NCBI GenBank assembly: GCA_965217775.1
Contig: CBDCJH010000002.1
Location: 6,080,001-6,144,000, forward strand
Reading direction: 5' to 3'
From: Acidobacteriota bacterium
GTDB lineage: Bacteria; Acidobacteriota; UBA6911; RPQK01; JAJDTT01
Length of the DNA: 64,000 nt
Shown: positions 3,156 to 48,967 of the stretch, one piece after another
Layout of the letters: each line of letters opens with the position of its first letter
Numbering within the stretch: position 1 is the first letter of the stretch
Program-made: the position numbers and the translations under genes
The notes under the pieces: generated by a model
What the model was told of the DNA's origin: nothing
What the model saw: only the letters and a program-made list of their open reading frames with translations
Databases searched by the model: none

Positions 3156-4745
3156 CTATTCGATTGCGGCCTCCTTGGCGTGGGTGTACAGCAACTTGCC
3201 CTTTTCGTCGTAGAAGGTGAAATCCATGCGAGCCTGCCCCTCGCCGGTCCGGCCGATCTTCATGAGCAGGAAACCACCGGTGGGTTCCTCGTAGTGGTAG
3301 GGCTGTTTCACTTTTCCCTCGGGATCCGAGGATTTGGGGTCGCCCGGAAAGTACCCTGGAATCGCGTTGGCGTCGATCATCGAGCCGACGGAGAATTCCT
3401 GGAAGCCGGAGGGGTGGACCGCATGATACTGCCAGTGGCGGTCCCCGCAGATGATGACGAAGCGTTCGGGAGAGAACTGGTTGTCCGTCAACCAGCGGAA
3501 GAACTCGTTGCCTTCATATCGGAATCCACCTGGGTTGATGTGGTTGTCCCGCTTCGAGCCACTGCCGGGTCCCACCATGGCTGTCGCGGAGAGAAGGACC
3601 TTGAAGGTGGCGTCGCTCTCCAGCAGAGTCCGTTCGAGCCATTCCTTCTGCTCTTTCCCCCAGACCGTCTTTCGGGGACCGTCGGGAAAGTCGTTGGGGC
3701 TGCGGTAGTCGCGTCCCTCCACGATCCAGATCTGCAGGTCCCGGTTCACTCGCCGCGTGGAGTAGGTCACCGTAGCGGACGCCCGTGGATCGACGACGGG
3801 GTACTGTTCCCGGAACATCCGGACCCCCAGTTCGTGGGAAGGAGCGTTGCCGGAACCGGAGTGCTTCGGGTAGAGGTTCTCCTTGGGGTAGGCTCCGATC
3901 CTGTCCTGGGCATAGACGCGGGCCGGATTGACCGGATCGGAGTCGTTGAACCGGTAGTCGTGATCGTCCTTCAACCAGTAGGTGGCCACTCGGACGAACA
4001 GATCCAGGAACCTCTGCTGCGAGTACTGCTCCTGGTGCTTCATCCGCAATTGGTGCTGGGTCTCCGCCCGTCCTCTCATCTGGTGACCGCTTCCGGGGCC
4101 GTCGTAGTAGACGTTGTCTCCGAGACCCACGAAGAAATCGGGCTCCAAGGCCAGGATGGCCGCCAACGCCGGGTAGCCCAGCGCCTTGTCCGGTCCGCTG
4201 TAGGGTGGTTGGGAACCGCTGCCGGTGTAGTGGAATTTGCTGTAGTGCATGCAGGTGGCGAGGGCGAAGCTGTAGGACACCTGCCCGGTCTCCCCGCCCA
4301 GGGTGGTGAAAGTCGCCGCCGCCGATTTCTCGAGCCGCGACTTGTCCGGCCCGTAGACCAGACGGTAGTGGTAGCGGGTCTCCGGCCGCAGCCCATCCAC
4401 CTTGACCTTCACGATGTAGTCGTTCTCCGGGAGGGCGGCGAGCCATTCCGTCCGGATCGAGTTCTTGAAATCGGCCCCGGTCCCCACCTCGAAGCCGGCG
4501 ACCCCCTCGATGCCCAGGACTCCCGACCAGCGGCGGTCGACGAGACGTTTCGTCGAGGTGAGACGGGACTGGAGGATGGCCGACGTGTCATCCACGGCGC
4601 CCACCATCAGACCGTGACCCAACTCCATGGGAAAGGGATCCTCGGACTGGGAAAAGCCCAGGTTTCCCAGGGTCAGAAACAGAAGCAGTGCGGGAATCCG
4701 GGCCCGGCGGCCGATCATTGCTCTAAGTTCTTGGAGACTGATCAT
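3156..4745 (-). CDS. PhoD-like alkaline phosphatase D family protein, secreted (paralog 2)
   Basis: Signal peptide, FN3-like N-domain (GLRPETRYHYRL), GDNVYYD, KDDHDY and GDRHW motifs. Confidence 0.88.
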   Translation of the reverse strand: MISLQELRAMIGRRARIPALLLFLTLGNLGFSQSEDPFPMELGHGLMVGAVDDTSAILQSRLTSTKRLVDRRWSGVLGIEGVAGFEVGTGADFKNSIRTEWLAALPENDYIVKVKVDGLRPETRYHYRLVYGPDKSRLEKSAAATFTTLGGETGQVSYSFALATCMHYSKFHYTGSGSQPPYSGPDKALGYPALAAILALEPDFFVGLGDNVYYDGPGSGHQMRGRAETQHQLRMKHQEQYSQQRFLDLFVRVATYWLKDDHDYRFNDSDPVNPARVYAQDRIGAYPKENLYPKHSGSGNAPSHELGVRMFREQYPVVDPRASATVTYSTRRVNRDLQIWIVEGRDYRSPNDFPDGPRKTVWGKEQKEWLERTLLESDATFKVLLSATAMVGPGSGSKRDNHINPGGFRYEGNEFFRWLTDNQFSPERFVIICGDRHWQYHAVHPSGFQEFSVGSMIDANAIPGYFPGDPKSSDPEGKVKQPYHYEEPTGGFLLMKIGRTGEGQARMDFTFYDEKGKLLYTHAKEAAIE

Positions 4746-6332
4746 TTATTCCGGCGCGGCCTCCTTGGTGTGGGTGTAAAGCACTTTGCCCTTTTCATCG
4801 TAGAAGGTGAAATCCATGCGGGCCCGCCCCTCGCCGGTTTGGCCGATCTTCATGATCAGGAAACCGCCGGTGGGTTCCTCGAAGTGATAGGGATGTTTGA
4901 TTTTTCCTTCGGGGTCCGACGATTTGGGATCGCCGGGAAAGAAGCCCAGAATCGCGTTGGAATCGTCGATAGCGCCGACGGAGAATTCCTGGAAGCCGGA
5001 GGGGTGGACGGCATGATACTGCCAGTGCCGATCTCCGCAGACGATCATGAAGCGTTCCGGTGAGAAACGTTCGGCCGTCAGCCAGCGGAAAAACTCGTCG
5101 CCTTCGGTTTGAAATCCTCCCGGGTTGACGTGGTTGTCGCGTTTGGCGGCGTAGTCGGGTCCCACCATGGGTGTCGCGGAGAATAGAACCTTGAAGGTGG
5201 CGTCGCTTTCCAGCAAGGTCCGTTTGAGCCACTCCTTCTGCTTTTTCCCCCAGATCGTCTTCCGGGGACCGTCGGGAAAGTCGTTGGGGCTGCGGTAGTC
5301 GCGTCCCTCCACGATCCAGATCTGCAGGTCCCGGTTCACTCTTCGCGTGGAGTAGGTCACCGTTTCGGACGCCCGTAGATCGACGACCGGAAGCTGTTCC
5401 CGGAACATCCGCACCCCCAATTCAGGGGAGGGAGCGTGGCCGGAACCGGAGTGTTTCGGGAAGAGGTTCTCCTTGGGATAGTTTCCGGTATTCGACCCGT
5501 CATAGATATGGATGCGGACCGGATTGACCGGATCTGAGTCGTTGAACCGGTAGTCGTGATCGTCCTTCAACCAATAGGTGGCCACTCGGGCGAACAGATC
5601 CGGGAACCTCTGCTGCGAGAACTGCTCGTGGTACTTCATCCGCAACTGGTGCTGCGTCTCCGCCCGTCCTCTCATGTCTTGGTCGGCTCCGGGGACGTCG
5701 TAGTAGACGTTGTCACCCAAACCCACGAAGAAGTCGGGCTCCAAGGCCAGGATGGAAGCCAGCCCCGGGTAGCCCAATGCCTTGTCCGGTCCGCTGTAGG
5801 GAGGGTGGCCACCGTGCCCGGTGTAATGGAAATAGGTGTAGTTCATGCAGGCGGCGAGGGCGAAGCTGTAGGAGACCTGTCCCGTGGGTCCGCCCAACGT
5901 GGTGAAGGTCGCGGCGGTCGATTTCTTGAGCCGAGACTTGTCCGGCCCGTAGACCAGGCGATAGTGGTAGCGGGTCTCAGGCCGCAGCCCTTCCACCTTG
6001 ACCTTCACGATGTAATCGTTCTCCGGGAGGGCGGCGAGCCACGCGGTCCGGATCGGGTTCTTGAAGTCGGCGCCGGTCGCCACCTCGAACCGGGAGATTC
6101 CCTCGATCCCCAAGACGCCCGACCAGCGGTTGTCGACGAGGCGCTCGGTCGAGGTGAGGCGGGACTGGAGAATCGCCGAAGCGTCGCCCACAGAGCCTGC
6201 CATCAGGCCGTGGCCCAGTTCCACGGGAAAGGGGTCCTGGGATTGGGAAAAGCCCGAGTTCCCGAGGGCCAGGAACAGAACCAATGCGGGGATCCGCCTC
6301 CGACAGGACCGTCGGGTGATCGTGGTGGTCAT
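4746..6332 (-). CDS. PhoD-like alkaline phosphatase D family protein, secreted (paralog 1)
   Basis: Same motifs as, and highly similar to, the adjacent paralog. GGAGG SD upstream of ATG 6332. Confidence 0.88.
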   Translation of the reverse strand: MTTTITRRSCRRRIPALVLFLALGNSGFSQSQDPFPVELGHGLMAGSVGDASAILQSRLTSTERLVDNRWSGVLGIEGISRFEVATGADFKNPIRTAWLAALPENDYIVKVKVEGLRPETRYHYRLVYGPDKSRLKKSTAATFTTLGGPTGQVSYSFALAACMNYTYFHYTGHGGHPPYSGPDKALGYPGLASILALEPDFFVGLGDNVYYDVPGADQDMRGRAETQHQLRMKYHEQFSQQRFPDLFARVATYWLKDDHDYRFNDSDPVNPVRIHIYDGSNTGNYPKENLFPKHSGSGHAPSPELGVRMFREQLPVVDLRASETVTYSTRRVNRDLQIWIVEGRDYRSPNDFPDGPRKTIWGKKQKEWLKRTLLESDATFKVLFSATPMVGPDYAAKRDNHVNPGGFQTEGDEFFRWLTAERFSPERFMIVCGDRHWQYHAVHPSGFQEFSVGAIDDSNAILGFFPGDPKSSDPEGKIKHPYHFEEPTGGFLIMKIGQTGEGRARMDFTFYDEKGKVLYTHTKEAAPE

Positions 6333-6391
6333 GATCTCCTCCAAGTCCCGGCATCATATCCGATTTGGGGTGCCGGGAGGGGCGACGTGGA

Positions 6392-6482
6392 GGGGGGACA
6401 TTCTTGTCCCCCACTGGGAGGCGACTTTCCTGTCGCCCATTGGGAAGGGCGACTTTCCTGTCGCCCACTGGGACAGGCGACT
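6392..6482. repeat. REP-like palindrome cluster, left part (interrupted by the intron)
   Basis: GGGGGACATTCTTGTCCCCC, then GGCGACTTTCCTGTCGCC twice, then the half-unit GGCGACT. Confidence 0.85.
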
Positions 6483-8399
6483 GTGCGCCAGGCTAACTGG
6501 CACAAGATAGGCGGTGGAAGTCCGCCGAAACGAAGGACTAACCATCCACGTTTCTCCGCGAGCCGTGCGTGGGCACCCGTGAGGGTGTCGGCGAAGCGTC
6601 GGTAGCGGTGCGTATGGGCAGGCTATTGAGCATCGAAAGCTCCCTGATCGGAAGTGCCGAGGCTGTAGTCGCGGTCGAAGGCAACACCGGCTGGACCGCC
6701 CAGGTGAGGGCCGGCCGGGCTCCGCGGTGTCAAAGAACCCAGGCACGTACGCAAATCTTGTTCCGGGACCTGGGAGGGCTTCATTTCACGCCGGGGGGTC
6801 GCCCCGGGGTCGCATGAGAAAGGAGTAACCCGAAACTCATGATGGACGGAACGAAGCAATCGGATTCATCCATAGTAGCGATGAAGCGGGCGAACAAAGA
6901 GGGGCGACCCTCGGCGGAGCCGGTGGAGCGAAGGGATGGAACCAAGGGGAATTCGGTGAGCCAAAGCACGCGCCGGACGCAGAGTCGGGGGAGCGTGTCC
7001 CAAGCGGTGGACCGGATACGGCGAGCGATCGCGAGAAACCCCAAGGAGCGACTGACCGCGCTGCTGCACCATATCACTGTGGAGGCCCTGCGCCGCGCCT
7101 ACCTCGGACTGAGGAAGGATGCTGCGCCGGGAATCGATGGGGTCCGGTGGGAGGAGTACGGGGCGAAGCTGGAAGAGCGACTGCTGGACCTGCATCGCCG
7201 CGTGCACCGGGGCGCGTACCGAGCGCCTCCCGTCCGGCGGGTGAACATCCCCAAGCCGGATGGAAGGACACGACCGCTCGGCGTGGCCGCGCTGGAGGAC
7301 AAGATCCTCCAGAAGGCAGTCGTGGACGAGCTCCTAACGCCGATTTACGAGGCGGAGTTTCTCGGGCTCAGCTACGGGTTCCGGCCCGGACGGAAGGCGC
7401 ATGACGCGCTGGATGCACTGGCCTACGGGATCGAACGGCGGAAAGTCAATTGGATCGTGGACGCGGACATTCGGACGTTCTTTGATGCGATCGACCGGGA
7501 CTGCCTGATGCAGTTCGTGGAACGGCGGATCGGAGACCGGCGGGTGCTGCGGCTGCTGCGCAAGTGGCTGAACGCCGGGGTGATGGAAGAAGGGACCTGG
7601 TCGGACTCGGGGAGAGGGACGCCTCAGGGCGCCAACGTCTCGCCGGTCATGGCCAACGTGTACCTGCACTACGTGCTGGACCAATGGTTCCATCGGACGT
7701 GGCGCCCACGAGTCCCGAAAGGCGAAGCGATCCTGGTGCGATATGCGGACGACTTCGTGGCCGGATTCCAGAGACGGGCGGACGCGAAACGGTTTCTCCG
7801 AGACCTGGGGGAACGGTGCGCCGAGTTCGGGCTGGAACTGCACCCGGAAAAGACGCGACTGGTGGAGTTCGGACGATTTGCGGCAGCGGATCGGCGACGA
7901 CGCGGGGAGCGGAAACCGGAGACGTTCGACTTTCTGGGGTTCACGCACTACTGTGCGAAGACCCGGAAGGGACGGTTCCGGCTGGGGCGGAAGCCAAGCG
8001 CGAAACGGATGAACCGGACCCTGCAACGGGTGGGGGAGAGGCTGTGGAGACAACGGCACGCGGATCACTGGGAGGTCGGGAAATGGTTGAGCCGGGTCCT
8101 GAACGGCTGGCTGAACTATTTTGCGGTTCCGGGGAGTACGCGCTGGCTGCGAGGTTTCTGCTATCTGCTGCAACGGCGGTGGCTGCGAGCCTTGCGCCGC
8201 CGGTCCCAACGCGACCGCTTCAGTTGGGGACGGTTGCGACGGATGACGGAGTTGCTCTGGCCATCCGTGAAGATCCGTCACCCGTGGCCGGGGCAGCGGT
8301 TCCGCTGGCCGTCCACACCCAAGGTAGGAGCCGGATGCCTTAACGGGCACGTCCGGATCTGTGCGGGGGGCGGCAGGAAACTGCCGTTCCTACCGTGAC
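6483..8399 (+). mobile_element. Group II intron (non-class C, IIB-like) with RT/maturase ORF
   Basis: 5' GTGCG at 6483. Domain V GAGCCGGATGCCTTAACGGGCACGTCCGGATC and a domain VI hairpin ending ...CCGTGAC at 8399. Removing the intron restores GGCGACT|TTCCTGTCGCC exactly. Confidence 0.95.
6839..8398 (+). CDS. ltrA: Group II intron reverse transcriptase/maturase, no endonuclease domain
   Basis: IPKPDGRTRPLG, SYGFRPGR, GTPQG, RYADD, FDFLGF and X domain GWLNYF. No HNH domain. Confidence 0.95.
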   Translation: MMDGTKQSDSSIVAMKRANKEGRPSAEPVERRDGTKGNSVSQSTRRTQSRGSVSQAVDRIRRAIARNPKERLTALLHHITVEALRRAYLGLRKDAAPGIDGVRWEEYGAKLEERLLDLHRRVHRGAYRAPPVRRVNIPKPDGRTRPLGVAALEDKILQKAVVDELLTPIYEAEFLGLSYGFRPGRKAHDALDALAYGIERRKVNWIVDADIRTFFDAIDRDCLMQFVERRIGDRRVLRLLRKWLNAGVMEEGTWSDSGRGTPQGANVSPVMANVYLHYVLDQWFHRTWRPRVPKGEAILVRYADDFVAGFQRRADAKRFLRDLGERCAEFGLELHPEKTRLVEFGRFAAADRRRRGERKPETFDFLGFTHYCAKTRKGRFRLGRKPSAKRMNRTLQRVGERLWRQRHADHWEVGKWLSRVLNGWLNYFAVPGSTRWLRGFCYLLQRRWLRALRRRSQRDRFSWGRLRRMTELLWPSVKIRHPWPGQRFRWPSTPKVGAGCLNGHVRICAGGGRKLPFLP

Positions 8400-8465
8400 T
8401 TCCTGTCGCCCATTGGAGGGGCGACTTTCTTGTCGCCCACTGGGACAGGCGACTTTCTTGTCGCC
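8400..8465. repeat. REP-like palindrome cluster, right part
   Basis: TTCCTGTCGCC half-unit, then GGCGACTTTCTTGTCGCC twice. A further variant GGCGACAAGAAAGTCGTCGCTCC lies at ~8559-8581. Confidence 0.85.
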
Positions 8466-8647
8466 TGCTCTTCCATGCTGCTATACGATTCCGCGGCCCG
8501 AAAGTGTTGAGGGGGAAAGTGTAAGGTGGGGACTCCGTCCCCCCAAGACCCCCCTGTCGGCGACAAGAAAGTCGTCGCTCCAGACTTGCTATACTCGCGG
8601 GCCGAATCGATTCATACGATTAAACGCCGCCCGTGGAGAGCGAACGC

Positions 8648-9406
8648 ATGTTGGATCTGAAAGACAGGACCGCCCTGATGGTGGGGACGAAGCGGGTGGG
8701 CGGCATCGTGGCACGCCGCTTGGCCCAAGCGGGCGTTCGCCTGGCGCTCAGCTACCGGGGTTCCAAGCTTGAGGCCCAGCACCTCCAGGCGGAGTTGGAG
8801 CCGATGACGCGGACCTGCCTGGTCCAGGCCGACGTGAGCCGGCCGGAGGACGTCGTCCGCCTGCTGCAAACGGTCCGCGAGGAACTCGGGGACCTCTCCT
8901 TTCTCGTCAACCTGGCCTCGGGATTTCCGCGGGCTCCCTTGGATTCGTTGGATGCTTCCGCTTGGGAAGCGGCGGAGCCGGCGGCCCGGGCCAACTATCT
9001 CCTGGCGGTCCACGCCTCCCGCAGCATGCGGCGGAACCGGGGACCGACCCGGGGCCACCTGATCTTCTTCAGCGACTGGGCCGCCGGCGGGACTCCCTAT
9101 CGGAACTACCTTCCCTACCTCACCTCCAAGGCGTCTATCGACTTCATGACCCGCGCCTTCGCCGTCGAATTGGCCCCGCACGGCATTCTGGTCAACGCCA
9201 TCGCCCCCGGGCCCACCATGCGTCCACCGGAAATCAGCAGCGAGGACTGGGAGAGATCCGTGATCGCCCGGACGCCCCTCCGGCGGGAGTCCGCCGCCGG
9301 AGAGATCGCCGAGATGATCGTCACCCTCCTCAAGAGCGAGACCATCACGGGCGAGACCATCCGGGTCGATGCCGGCCGCCACCTGGCGGGTCCGGGCGTG
9401 GATTGA
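8648..9406 (+). CDS. SDR oxidoreductase, pteridine reductase (FolM/PTR1)-like
   Basis: GTKRVG Rossmann variant, VNLASGF, YLTSK, VNAIAPG and GETIRVDAGRHL. Confidence 0.8.
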   Translation: MLDLKDRTALMVGTKRVGGIVARRLAQAGVRLALSYRGSKLEAQHLQAELEPMTRTCLVQADVSRPEDVVRLLQTVREELGDLSFLVNLASGFPRAPLDSLDASAWEAAEPAARANYLLAVHASRSMRRNRGPTRGHLIFFSDWAAGGTPYRNYLPYLTSKASIDFMTRAFAVELAPHGILVNAIAPGPTMRPPEISSEDWERSVIARTPLRRESAAGEIAEMIVTLLKSETITGETIRVDAGRHLAGPGVD

Positions 9407-29092: not shown

Positions 29093-29169
<77 letters not shown>

Positions 29170-47431: not shown

Positions 47432-48967
47432 GTGATCAACCAAAACACAGAGGCTGCGTGGCAATATCACAACGCCACCAAGCATTCGCCGTGGAGTGTC
47501 CGGGCCAATACACACCGTATGGATTGGTCCATCAAACCCCTTCCGTTCAAGATTTACCCCAAACTGGAGCCGATCCGGCTGGATCCGTCGATTGCCAGAA
47601 CCGAGGTTCCGGCTCTTGTGGCCGTGTCGGCCACCGAGGTCGACTCGGAAACCGAATCCGCTCCGGACCTCAAGCAGCTGGGGCAGTTGCTCTACCTTTC
47701 GGCGGGTATCACTAAGAAAGTCGATTACCCGGGCGGGACCCAGTACTTCCGTGCCGCATCCTGCACGGGCGCACTCTACGCGTTCGAGGTGTACATCGTA
47801 TGCGGCGATCTCAATGGGCTCGACGCAGGCGTTTACAACTTCGGTCCAGGCGACTTGAGCCTTCGCCGACTGCGCGAAGGCGATTATCGGGGCGTGCTGG
47901 CCGGGGCAGCCGGAAATGATCCGGCCATCGCCGGCGCTGCTGCGATCCTCATCTGCACCGGCACTTACTGGCGGAACGCCTGGAAATATCAGGCTCGAAC
48001 GTACCGTCATTTTGGCTGGGATAACGGCACGATCGTTGCGAACACGCTGGCCGTTGCCGAGGCTCTCGGTCTCCCGGCTCAAGTGACGTGTGGTTTCATC
48101 GACGCTGATGTCAATCGTCTGCTCGACCTCGACACGGAACACGAGGTGGCGTTTTCGATGATTCCGCTGGGGAGTCAATCCGTTTCTCACCCAGCGTCTC
48201 CAAGGGACATTCCACCACTGAATCTTGAGACGGTACCGCTTTCAGAGAGCGAAGTGCAGTACCCTCAGATGACCCGGATGCACGAGGCGTCGTCGCTCGG
48301 GAGTATTGAGGAGGTCGTGGCTTGGCGCGGCCACACGCCGGTCGGCCCGGGACCGTCCTTAAACAGCGAAACTATTTCTCTCTTGCCGCCGCCTGACAGT
48401 CAGATACCCAAAGACAGCATCGAGACAGTGGTCCTGCGACGTGGATCAACACGGCAGTTCGACCGGGTGTCGATAGAGGCCAAGCAGTTAGGGACAATGC
48501 TCCACTGTGCGACGCGGGGCATTCGGGCGGACTTTCTCTCTCGCTTCGGTTCGTCCCTGAACGACGTTTATCTGATCGTGAACGCCGTGGACGGAATCAA
48601 ACCCGGCGCGTATGTGTACCATCATGAAGAGAACAAGCTGGAGCTTTTGAAGGAAGGGGATTTCCGTGGCGAGGCCTCACACCTGGGGTTGGACCAATCG
48701 CTTCCCGGCGACGCCAGTATCGCCGTCTTCTTTTTGGCGGACCTCGCCCCAATTCTCCGGCGGTTTGGAAACCGCGGATACCGTGCAGTGCAGCTTGAAG
48801 CCGGGATCCTCGGTGGGAAACTCTACCTGGGGGCCTATGCCCAGCGTCTCGGCGCGACGGGACTCACCTTCTACGACGACGAAGTCATCGAGTTCTTCTC
48901 ACCCCACGCCGCCGGCAAGAGTGCAATCTTTTTGATGGCGCTGGGCAAGAGCGTCAAGCGCGGTTAG
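47432..48967 (+). CDS. SagB/ThcOx-type nitroreductase-fold dehydrogenase (tandem domain)
   Basis: YHNATKH, RAASCTGALY, WKYQARTYRH, RRGSTR and RGYRAVQLEAG. Confidence 0.85.
   Translation: MINQNTEAAWQYHNATKHSPWSVRANTHRMDWSIKPLPFKIYPKLEPIRLDPSIARTEVPALVAVSATEVDSETESAPDLKQLGQLLYLSAGITKKVDYPGGTQYFRAASCTGALYAFEVYIVCGDLNGLDAGVYNFGPGDLSLRRLREGDYRGVLAGAAGNDPAIAGAAAILICTGTYWRNAWKYQARTYRHFGWDNGTIVANTLAVAEALGLPAQVTCGFIDADVNRLLDLDTEHEVAFSMIPLGSQSVSHPASPRDIPPLNLETVPLSESEVQYPQMTRMHEASSLGSIEEVVAWRGHTPVGPGPSLNSETISLLPPPDSQIPKDSIETVVLRRGSTRQFDRVSIEAKQLGTMLHCATRGIRADFLSRFGSSLNDVYLIVNAVDGIKPGAYVYHHEENKLELLKEGDFRGEASHLGLDQSLPGDASIAVFFLADLAPILRRFGNRGYRAVQLEAGILGGKLYLGAYAQRLGATGLTFYDDEVIEFFSPHAAGKSAIFLMALGKSVKRG

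Follow-up and report, generated by a model that had tools for sequence, protein, structure and literature searches.

A group II intron of an Acidobacteriota bacterium that probably homes by base pairing into the REP palindromes of its host

Results and discussion

An intron inside a REP unit

The 64,000-nucleotide stretch analysed here (positions 6,080,001 to 6,144,000 of contig CBDCJH010000002.1 in assembly GCA_965217775.1, from an Acidobacteriota bacterium; hereafter the window) carries a group II intron that is very probably a mobile, endonuclease-less element of IIB-like type, retrohoming by base pairing into its host's repetitive extragenic palindromic sequences (REPs). An earlier note, made from the letters of the window alone, had marked positions 6392-8465, which correspond to the intron plus the surrounding REP array, and had read them as an intron programmed to home into these palindromes; the observation is confirmed by our analysis, and the interpretation is supported.

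In silico excision of the intron joins GGCGACT (6476-6482) to TTCCTGTCGCC (8400-8410) and renders GGCGACTTTCCTGTCGCC, identical letter for letter to the intact units at 6420-6437 and 6448-6465 (Table 1), as expected from the proposal that a repeat unit within a REP-like array had been split exactly. The insertion point lies one base into the hairpin loop of the REP (GGCGACT/TTCCTGTCGCC). The 5' exon, GGGACA-G-GCGACT, matches the first exon-binding site of the intron (EBS1) at 6/6 positions and the second one (EBS2) at 4/6, the latter being the degree of match that had also been reported for the corresponding intron-binding site (IBS2). The array is intergenic, located between open reading frames (ORFs) 4746-6344 (minus strand) and 8633-9406 (plus strand), an extragenic position that was established for the array of the window only.

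Table 1. Features of the intron and of the REP array (positions in the window)
Feature	Position	Strand	Remarks
REP unit, GGGGAC-ATTCTT-GTCCCC variant	6394..6411	+	arm followed by A, hence no fit to EBS1
Intact REP unit, GGCGAC-TTTCCT-GTCGCC	6420..6437	+	shows the appearance of an empty target
Intact REP unit, GGCGAC-TTTCCT-GTCGCC	6448..6465	+
IBS2 of the occupied site, GGGACA	6470..6475	+	4/6 match to EBS2; local REP consensus (A/G)GGAG(C/G)
IBS1, GCGACT	6477..6482	+	final 5 nt of the 5' arm, and loop base 1
Group II intron	6483..8399	+	1917 nt; starts GTGCG (GUGCG in RNA), last letters ..CCTACCGTGAC / ..CCUACCGUGAC
Domain I core	6517..6739	+	Rfam RF02005 group-II-D1D4-6, 165.7 bits
EBS2, GCUCCC	6639..6644	+	unpaired domain I stretch (Rfam alignment); core CUCC against the GGAG tag
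EBS1, AGUCGC	6667..6672	+	terminal hairpin loop (Rfam alignment)
EBS3, A6732	6732..6732	+	3' end of domain I; pairs with the +1 T; identified by three-way covariation
RT/maturase ORF	6839..8398	+	519 aa, YADD; passes through domains V/VI and stops one base short of the intron end
Domain V	8328..8359	+	32 nt; AGC triad at 8329-8331
Domain VI and 3' end	8360..8399	+	candidate bulged branch A at 8392 (RF00029 alignment)
3' exon, remainder of the split REP (TTCCT loop and GTCGCC arm)	8400..8410	+	T8400 = IBS3
Intact REP unit, GGCGAC-TTTCTT-GTCGCC	8420..8437	+
Intact REP unit, GGCGAC-TTTCTT-GTCGCC	8448..8465	+
REP in opposite orientation	8559..8581	-	GGCGACAAGAAAGTCGTC then GCTCC (complement of the tag); 3' arm imperfect

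Copies of the intron in its own genome

A search of the whole genome (G000, with C2 as its main contig) rendered 21 segments, which were resolved by their flanks into 16 insertions: ten full-length copies with 99% identity, one copy with an internal deletion, four ORF-less minis of 640-755 nt with common deletion end points, and one 5' stub. Nine of the ten full-length ORFs are intact and include the YADD motif. The test that had been suggested, whether other copies also sit in REPs, gave a clear answer, since 14 of the 15 insertions for which both flanks are present split a REP palindrome at the junction between 5' arm and loop, so that removal of the intron restores the REP, while the flanks beyond the REP differ between copies. 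Thirteen of these fourteen REPs are of the GGCGRC type with GGAG directly before them, and the remaining one, which hosts the mini at C2:3223516, is a different hairpin (GTAGG-GGCACCC/CTTGT-GGGTGCCC). The exception is the full-length copy C2:3929720-3931636, which has entered a long ORF (DUF6797, open for at least 600 codons) between two codons and in the sense direction. EBS1 nevertheless fits its 5' exon, ..AGGAGAUGCGGCU, and this copy is an occasional ectopic hop that does not refute homing into REPs.

Two of the shorter copies have counterparts in other genomes of the genus. The ORF-less copy C2:1903834-1904588 bears an AT-rich insertion of ca. 112 nt with inverted ends inside a domain I hairpin, and is found with the same insertion and the same flanks in genome G010 (L089), for which reason it is considered old and probably dead. 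A 5' stub of 64-67 nt after a common flank (..GGAAGGRGCGGCGACT) is present in G000 (C2:3009691-3009757), G014 (L069) and G010 (L090) and is a common ancient remnant of a REP insertion, suggesting that the association with REPs predates the split of these three species.

Covariation of the guides with their targets

A further 39 copies were gathered from the genus, and their flanks and guides were read. The covariation alignment comprised 43 distinct copies, drawn from seven genomes within the genus, seven rows (5' stubs, copies disrupted by insertions or with a mis-set start) and three rows duplicating the aligned segment of another having been excluded. The 12 EBS/IBS pairs are formed in 90.1% of cases over these copies, as compared to 79.9% in shuffles, none of 500 of which reached the observed value, and to 52.7% at most when the partners were slid; changes on both sides were found in nine of the 12 pairs. 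The EBS1 helix is paired in 98.1%, through the EBS1:IBS1 variants AGUCGC:GCGACU, AGUCCC:GGGACU, AACCCC:GGGGUU, AAUCGC:GCGAUU, GGGUGC:GCACCC, GGUCGC:GCGACC and GGAUGC:GCAUCU. The variants of EBS2:IBS2 (exon positions -13 to -8) are GCUCC:GGAGC, CCUAC:GUAGG and CAUGC:GCAUG, with four core pairs nearly always formed and the two outer ones often not, and in eight of the nine other full-length copies of the own genome EBS2 reads GCUCCA. When all alignment columns were scanned against the +1 base, a single column was found to covary in three ways (A:T 34, G:C 3, U:A 1; a pair in 38 of 39), and the base at this column, A6732, is taken as EBS3.

The positions that the earlier note had given for EBS1 and EBS2 are thus upheld, both by the Rfam model and by compensatory changes across copies. 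Folding of domain I, which had been advised as a check, was of less help: the minimum free energy fold of the single sequence (z -1.18) keeps the EBS1 hairpin, with its loop paired into, and does not decide the positions, so that their placement comes from the Rfam model and the covariation.

REP families of the genome and the target motif

The repeats have the properties by which REPs are recognized, namely a short palindrome of 20-40 bp, more than 100 copies and an unpaired tag at one end (GGAG in type I, GTAG in type II). Type I comprises 190 perfect hairpins with a 6-bp stem and the listed loops, including the stems GGCGAC (77), GGCGGC (49) and GGGGAC (44), and its consensus is (A/G)GGAG(C/G)-GGCGRC-TTTCTT-GYCGCC, which is indeed the GGAG-type consensus that the guides had been said to specify. 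The family had also been described as high-copy; a repeat family it is, its size being moderate at about 190 perfect type I hairpins, and the share of REPs in the DNA of the genome is far below 0.1%. The GGAG tag is conserved at ca. 80% per position and is the commonest 4-mer ahead of GC-clamped hairpins (201 of 4328, the runner-up having 51). Type II REPs bear the classical GTAG tag (GTAGG-GGCRCCC-CTTGT-GGGYGCC) and number 53-150 copies depending on the pattern used, with examples at 48118, 1347607 and 2239056 of C2. They host an ORF-less intron lineage of their own (C2:3223516-3224157), whose EBS1, EBS2 and EBS3 all fit type II, and which was also found in G010, G007, G009 and G014.

REPs have been described as tagged palindromes whose tag is required by the REP transposase (PMC3733652, PMC8266576); the GGAG tag is not mentioned in the first of these sources. 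Two ORFs of the genome resemble Y1 transposases of the REP-associated tyrosine transposase (RAYT) type, C2:5635223-5635945 (L091) and C2:4665591-4666268 (L092). They score 70.3 and 78.2 bits on NF047646, below the NCBIfam cut-off of 80 for a RAYT, and each has a GGAG-tagged REP on one side, the usual two-sided REP flank not being seen.

The motif GGAG-NN-GCGRCT occurs at 181 sites of the main contig, 121 of them in REPs, and at 123 sites, 114 of them in REPs, when T at +1 is included. Copies outside hairpins, that is, the gene copy C2:3929720 and three copies in an integrase gene of G009, keep the full EBS/IBS fit. Sequence alone thus explains the specificity for REPs, and sensing of the hairpin is not needed, given that nearly all full-motif sites lie in REPs and that copies outside hairpins fit as well.

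Distribution in the genus, empty sites and retargeted guides

The 5'-terminal 378 nt of the intron were used as a query and found in seven of eight other genomes of the genus and in none of six genomes of the sister genus. Genus-wide, the tag (GGAG or GTAG) occupies -12 to -9 at 48 of 53 junctions, and a perfect palindrome is regained at 31 of the 43 junctions for which a 3' exon is present. We rely on these tag counts and perfect palindromes because a looser palindrome test, passed by 40 of the 43 junctions, is too permissive: by our estimate ca. 9% of random sites would pass it too, and the gene copy does so only with a shifted arm.

Empty sites were found at the orthologous locus. In four genomes (G011, G013, G009 and G014), REPs without an intron lie upstream of the orthologous SDR gene, and in G011 the intact unit GGAGG-GGCGAC-TTTCTT-GTCGCC follows the same upstream sequence; G007 retains a fragment of domain I there. 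Contigs spanning the locus, devoid of the intron and with other numbers of REP units, are also present in public runs, and the joints across the intron in X2 and X6 end in neighbouring REP units, which is read as intron-less alleles differing in REP number. Together with the 99%-identical copies at different sites, the empty orthologous sites point indirectly to mobility, and the intron may be active at present.

The EBS1 variants follow the dominant REP variant of each species (Table 2), in a match that is qualitative only, since the genomes are few and related. In G000, 39 GGGGAC REPs have A as the next base, do not fit, and are unoccupied.

Table 2. REP variants and intron guides in genomes of the genus (G000, own genome)
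Genome	GGCGRC-type REPs	GGGGAC-T-type REPs	EBS1 of the intron copies
G000	74	0	AGUCGC only
G014	121	1	AGUCGC 6/6
G011	33	11	AGUCGC 8, AGUCCC 1
G007	0	70	AGUCCC 6, AAUCGC 4, AACCCC 1, AGUCGC 0
G009	43	9	integrase gene targeted instead by the full-length copies
G013	98	19	intron fragments only

The full-length copies of G009 are three sister introns (L104-L106, at about 645-2556 of each locus) whose RT is 90% identical and whose guides read CAUGC and GGAUGC. Their insertion point is codon 4 of a tyrosine-integrase (recombinase) gene present in three copies, the guides having been retargeted to it. Similarity between the flanks of the three loci extends for ca. 75 nt on the upstream side and for at least 1 kb on the downstream side.

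More distant relatives, with RTs 49-57% identical, were found in metagenome-assembled genomes of other Acidobacteriota and in plasmids of Klebsiella; they share the Rfam family of the intron and do not lie in palindromes. Homing into REPs is for this reason regarded as a derived trait of a clade at the level of the genus, and not of the whole Rfam D1D4-6 group.

Anatomy of the intron

The 5' end GUGCG and the match of domain I to RF02005 (gathering score 49) are those of a group II intron. The product of the ORF, a reverse transcriptase (RT)/maturase, matches TIGR04416 at 355.6 bits (cut-off 300), and no endonuclease (En) domain was detected in its 519 aa, the Pfam search giving RVT_1 only. 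The overrun of domains V and VI by the ORF is a feature of the lineage rather than a chance open frame, given that the nearest plasmid relatives align across all 519 residues. Outside the ORF, the ribozyme amounts to ca. 430 nt (356 nt 5' of the ORF plus ca. 74 nt of domains V and VI), at or slightly under the lower bound of the 450-700 nt reported, without the ORF, for the IIB-like lineages IIE and IIF (PMC3753933). To judge from these traits, the small size and the En-minus RT would fit the small IIB-like lineages E and F, as would the presence of both EBS1 and EBS2 and a length of mostly 640-645 nt in the ORF-less copies. RF02005 had no match in 14 named control genomes, and the publications consulted on E/F and Enterobacterales introns assign no ORF class to the nearest relatives. 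Domain V had been described as full-length with an AGC triad; the triad is present, the domain being shorter (32 nt, not 34) and the G of the triad facing an A. Its apex, GCC-UUAAC-GGGC, can be drawn with a loop of 4, 5 or 6 nt, the length characteristic of lineages IIE and IIF being 5 nt.

Proposed insertion mechanism and strand bias

In the mechanism that we propose, the three guides of domain I would read 13 contiguous bases of the target: the CUCC core of EBS2 would pair with the GGAG tag, which lies unpaired 5' of the REP hairpin, EBS1 (AGUCGC) with loop base 1 and the five 5'-arm bases that precede it, and A6732, as EBS3, with the next loop base. The intron RNA would then reverse-splice between loop bases 1 and 2. 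As the RT is devoid of an endonuclease, cDNA synthesis would be primed by the nascent strand at the replication fork, a mode of priming suggested by the strand bias described below together with the known behaviour of En-minus introns. The 640-nt ORF-less derivatives, which bear the same guides, would be moved in trans by the RT of the full-length copies, and mutations in EBS1, EBS2 and EBS3 would have retargeted sub-lineages to other REP variants, to the GTAG-tagged REP family and, in one species, to the multi-copy integrase gene.

The cumulative GC skew has its minimum at ca. 4.95-5.0 Mb and its maximum at ca. 1.65 Mb. With these as reference, 15 of the 16 insertions point with the replication fork (binomial p = 5e-4), as compared to 40 of 82 intact empty REPs in target orientation. 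In three relatives with closed genomes, plus and minus copies each lie on one arc (G011 5/6, G007 7/5, G014 4/4), as seen from the coordinates of the copies. Priming by the nascent strand at the fork has been reported for En-minus introns (Zimmerly & Semper 2015), and the strand bias in our analysis is consistent with it.

Points against homing into REPs, and alternative explanations

Several points weigh against the interpretation of the intron as a mobile REP-homing element. The strand bias could instead reflect selection for co-orientation with transcription. The RF00029 match of domains V and VI covers the full model length (8326-8399; E 3e-5 in a permissive scan with a 2.1-kb search) and scores 37.5 bits, just below the gathering score of 40, with the mismatch in the triad helix already mentioned. 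The copy of the window pairs at no more than four of the six IBS2 bases, and genus-wide the outer EBS2 positions often lack a pair, in 24 of the 43 copies at alignment column 8 and in 21 at column 13, so that EBS2 is effectively a contact of 4-5 bp. One of the ten full-length ORFs is frameshifted, and the genome is a two-contig assembly with an estimated contamination of 7.5%. G014 has six minis and no cognate RT, its best RT being 37% identical. Lastly, the four public runs consist of assembled contigs, and contigs from RNA runs cannot show transcription: near-identical intron contigs occur in RNA library X9, where carry-over of DNA is possible, and the exon-exon joint 6482/8400 is not among the joints listed for the public-run contigs.

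Two observations belong beside these. The six to seven ORF-less copies of G014 lie in REPs and may be relics or may have been moved by a foreign RT. In one X9 contig of low depth (5.3), position 8372 of the window is joined to 6482, that is, a mini-type 3' end (..CCCTACCGCGA) is joined to T-GTGCG, the start of the intron. Both an intron circle and a tandem insertion are possible, the evidence being weak; tandem insertion is conceivable because the last five bases of the intron and the exon T recreate an IBS1-like GCGACT.

It could also be the case that targeting is directed by structure, as in class C introns, the ribonucleoprotein sensing the REP as a DNA hairpin and the sequence match being secondary. 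The targets are hairpins, the insertion point in both REP families is invariably the place where the 5' arm meets the loop, forks are the site of action of En-minus introns and could be where REPs are extruded, and class C introns provide the precedent. We nevertheless consider this improbable. EBS2 exists and covaries, whereas IIC introns lack it, and insertion takes place inside the hairpin loop and not downstream of it, as after a terminator, in agreement with the previous view that the intron is not of class C. Moreover, IBS1 lies within the stem, so that pairing requires a melted hairpin, and the copies outside hairpins retain their full fit. Where the same 12-13-nt motif is present, occupancy is no higher at REP sites than at the others (Fisher p = 0.33, or 1.0 with the +1 T), in a comparison of low power that includes only nine non-REP full-motif sites.

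An explanation by survivorship only, in which the intron would insert widely at loose matches and persist only in neutral intergenic REPs, so that the pattern would be one of selection and not of targeting, draws on the copy found in a gene, which indicates that hops off REPs occur, and on the purifying selection expected to act on genic insertions (Mohr 2010). This is very unlikely in view of guides that agree with the REP consensus at 11-13 bases and vary together with the REP variants; the proportion of full-motif sites located in REPs means that targeting alone predicts the pattern, and other intergenic DNA is not used by the intron. Finally, the presence of REP-like sequence at the flanks of nearly every copy and of RAYT-like genes in the genome might suggest that REP halves are part of the mobile unit as terminal repeats, or that a RAYT placed REPs beside introns, the intron itself not choosing them. 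We give this hardly any credence: an exact REP unit is restored upon removal of the intron, intact REPs with this sequence and without an intron amount to 74-121 per genome, orthologous loci have the REP without the intron, and the flanks diverge past the REP. Group II introns do not carry exon sequence along with them.

Comparison with known systems

Homing into host REPs by base pairing, our preferred interpretation, has partial parallels in several systems. RmInt1 of Sinorhizobium meliloti (class D, IIB3) also homes by EBS/IBS pairing into a dispensable multi-copy target and reaches a high copy number; its target is the insertion sequence (IS) ISRm2011-2 instead of a REP, and it probably belongs to a different ORF class; the intron described here falls in Rfam D1D4-6, with the small ribozyme given above. 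TeI3/TeI4 of Thermosynechococcus elongatus (PMC2882425) resemble it in their proliferation within one genome, in having families with different EBS1/2/3 and different targets, in ORF-less derivatives of one deletion moved in trans, and in a preference for non-essential repeated DNA. According to that source they target intergenic sites and other introns as well as an IS200-type element and a tRNA gene, with no REPs, and their RTs have a different set of domains; here, by contrast, it is the REP families of the host that are targeted, and the guide variants differ among sister species together with their REP variants. Class C introns share the DNA palindromes, the En-minus RTs, the small ribozymes and the many intergenic copies, but they have only EBS3 and a short EBS1, with no EBS2, and the stem-loop itself (terminator or attC) is the motif that they recognize and behind which they insert, whereas in our intron EBS1, EBS2 and EBS3 all covary and insertion occurs within the loop.

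REPs of the host also serve as specific landing sites for several IS (ISPpu9, ISPpu10, ISPa11, ISPsy8 and IS1397; PMC1525189). Those elements are protein-guided DNA transposons (IS110 family and others), while here an RNA guide would read the REP. The only precedent that we have found for an intron in REPs is a group II intron of Pseudomonas putida KT2440, two of whose nine copies are associated with them (Tobes & Pareja 2006, PMC1525189). The ltrA introns of plasmids from Klebsiella and other Enterobacterales are close in protein (RT 52% identical over 519 aa, with an ORF reaching the intron end). The Klebsiella plasmid intron, which probably corresponds to Kl.pn.I5, a name that we have assigned by inference and that is not a database label, also matches RF02005 (184.4 bits). 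It occupies an ordinary intergenic site without a palindrome, at one or two copies per genome. The best RT match in the plasmid collection was 58% identical (Skermanella).

In the open literature, which leaves subscription journals outside the coverage of our search, we found no account of a group II intron that homes into REPs. The mechanism is ordinary retrohoming of IIB type. A repeat family of the host, with 100-200 copies, has in this manner become the homing site of an ordinary base-pairing intron, which lifts the usual limit of homing-site saturation while sequence specificity is kept, and REPs may act as harmless landing pads, the 'safe harbour' that had been suggested. The retargeted guides across sister species form a natural series, which includes compensatory changes in EBS2; in IIE/IIF introns EBS2 pairing is dispensable for splicing in vitro, and its role in mobility has only been guessed at (PMC3753933). 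A compact En-minus intron with 640-nt ORF-less forms and a multi-copy intergenic target may be of interest for multi-site insertion engineering in Acidobacteriota. It also ties introns to the field of REPs and RAYTs, in which the known invaders of REPs are IS elements only.

It is possible, though rather doubtful, that the relationship goes further and that there is joint evolution of the intron lineage with the REP/RAYT system, EBS2 reading the unpaired tetranucleotide (GGAG/GTAG) that serves REP transposases for recognition and as a guide, EBS1 reading the 5' arm, and the guides tracking the REPs of each species. A REP extruded on the lagging-strand template would leave the tag single-stranded, a possible toehold for EBS2 ahead of the opening of the stem by EBS1. 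The intron would then live as a parasite on a repeat system that has been domesticated, competing with RAYT for one single-stranded DNA substrate and regaining targets as REPs spread. If this were so, it would represent a fourth natural targeting strategy, beside the unique homing sites, terminators and attC sites named in reviews of bacterial group II introns (Zimmerly & Semper 2015).

Other features of the window

Two adjoining paralogous genes on the minus strand (3156-4745 and 4746-6344) abut head to tail immediately upstream of the REP array; their products, of ca. 530 aa each, are very similar and have N-termini resembling signal peptides. A tRNA gene at 29096-29169 (minus strand, 76.4 bits) has no bearing on the intron. 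The host has been described as a soil-type bacterium.

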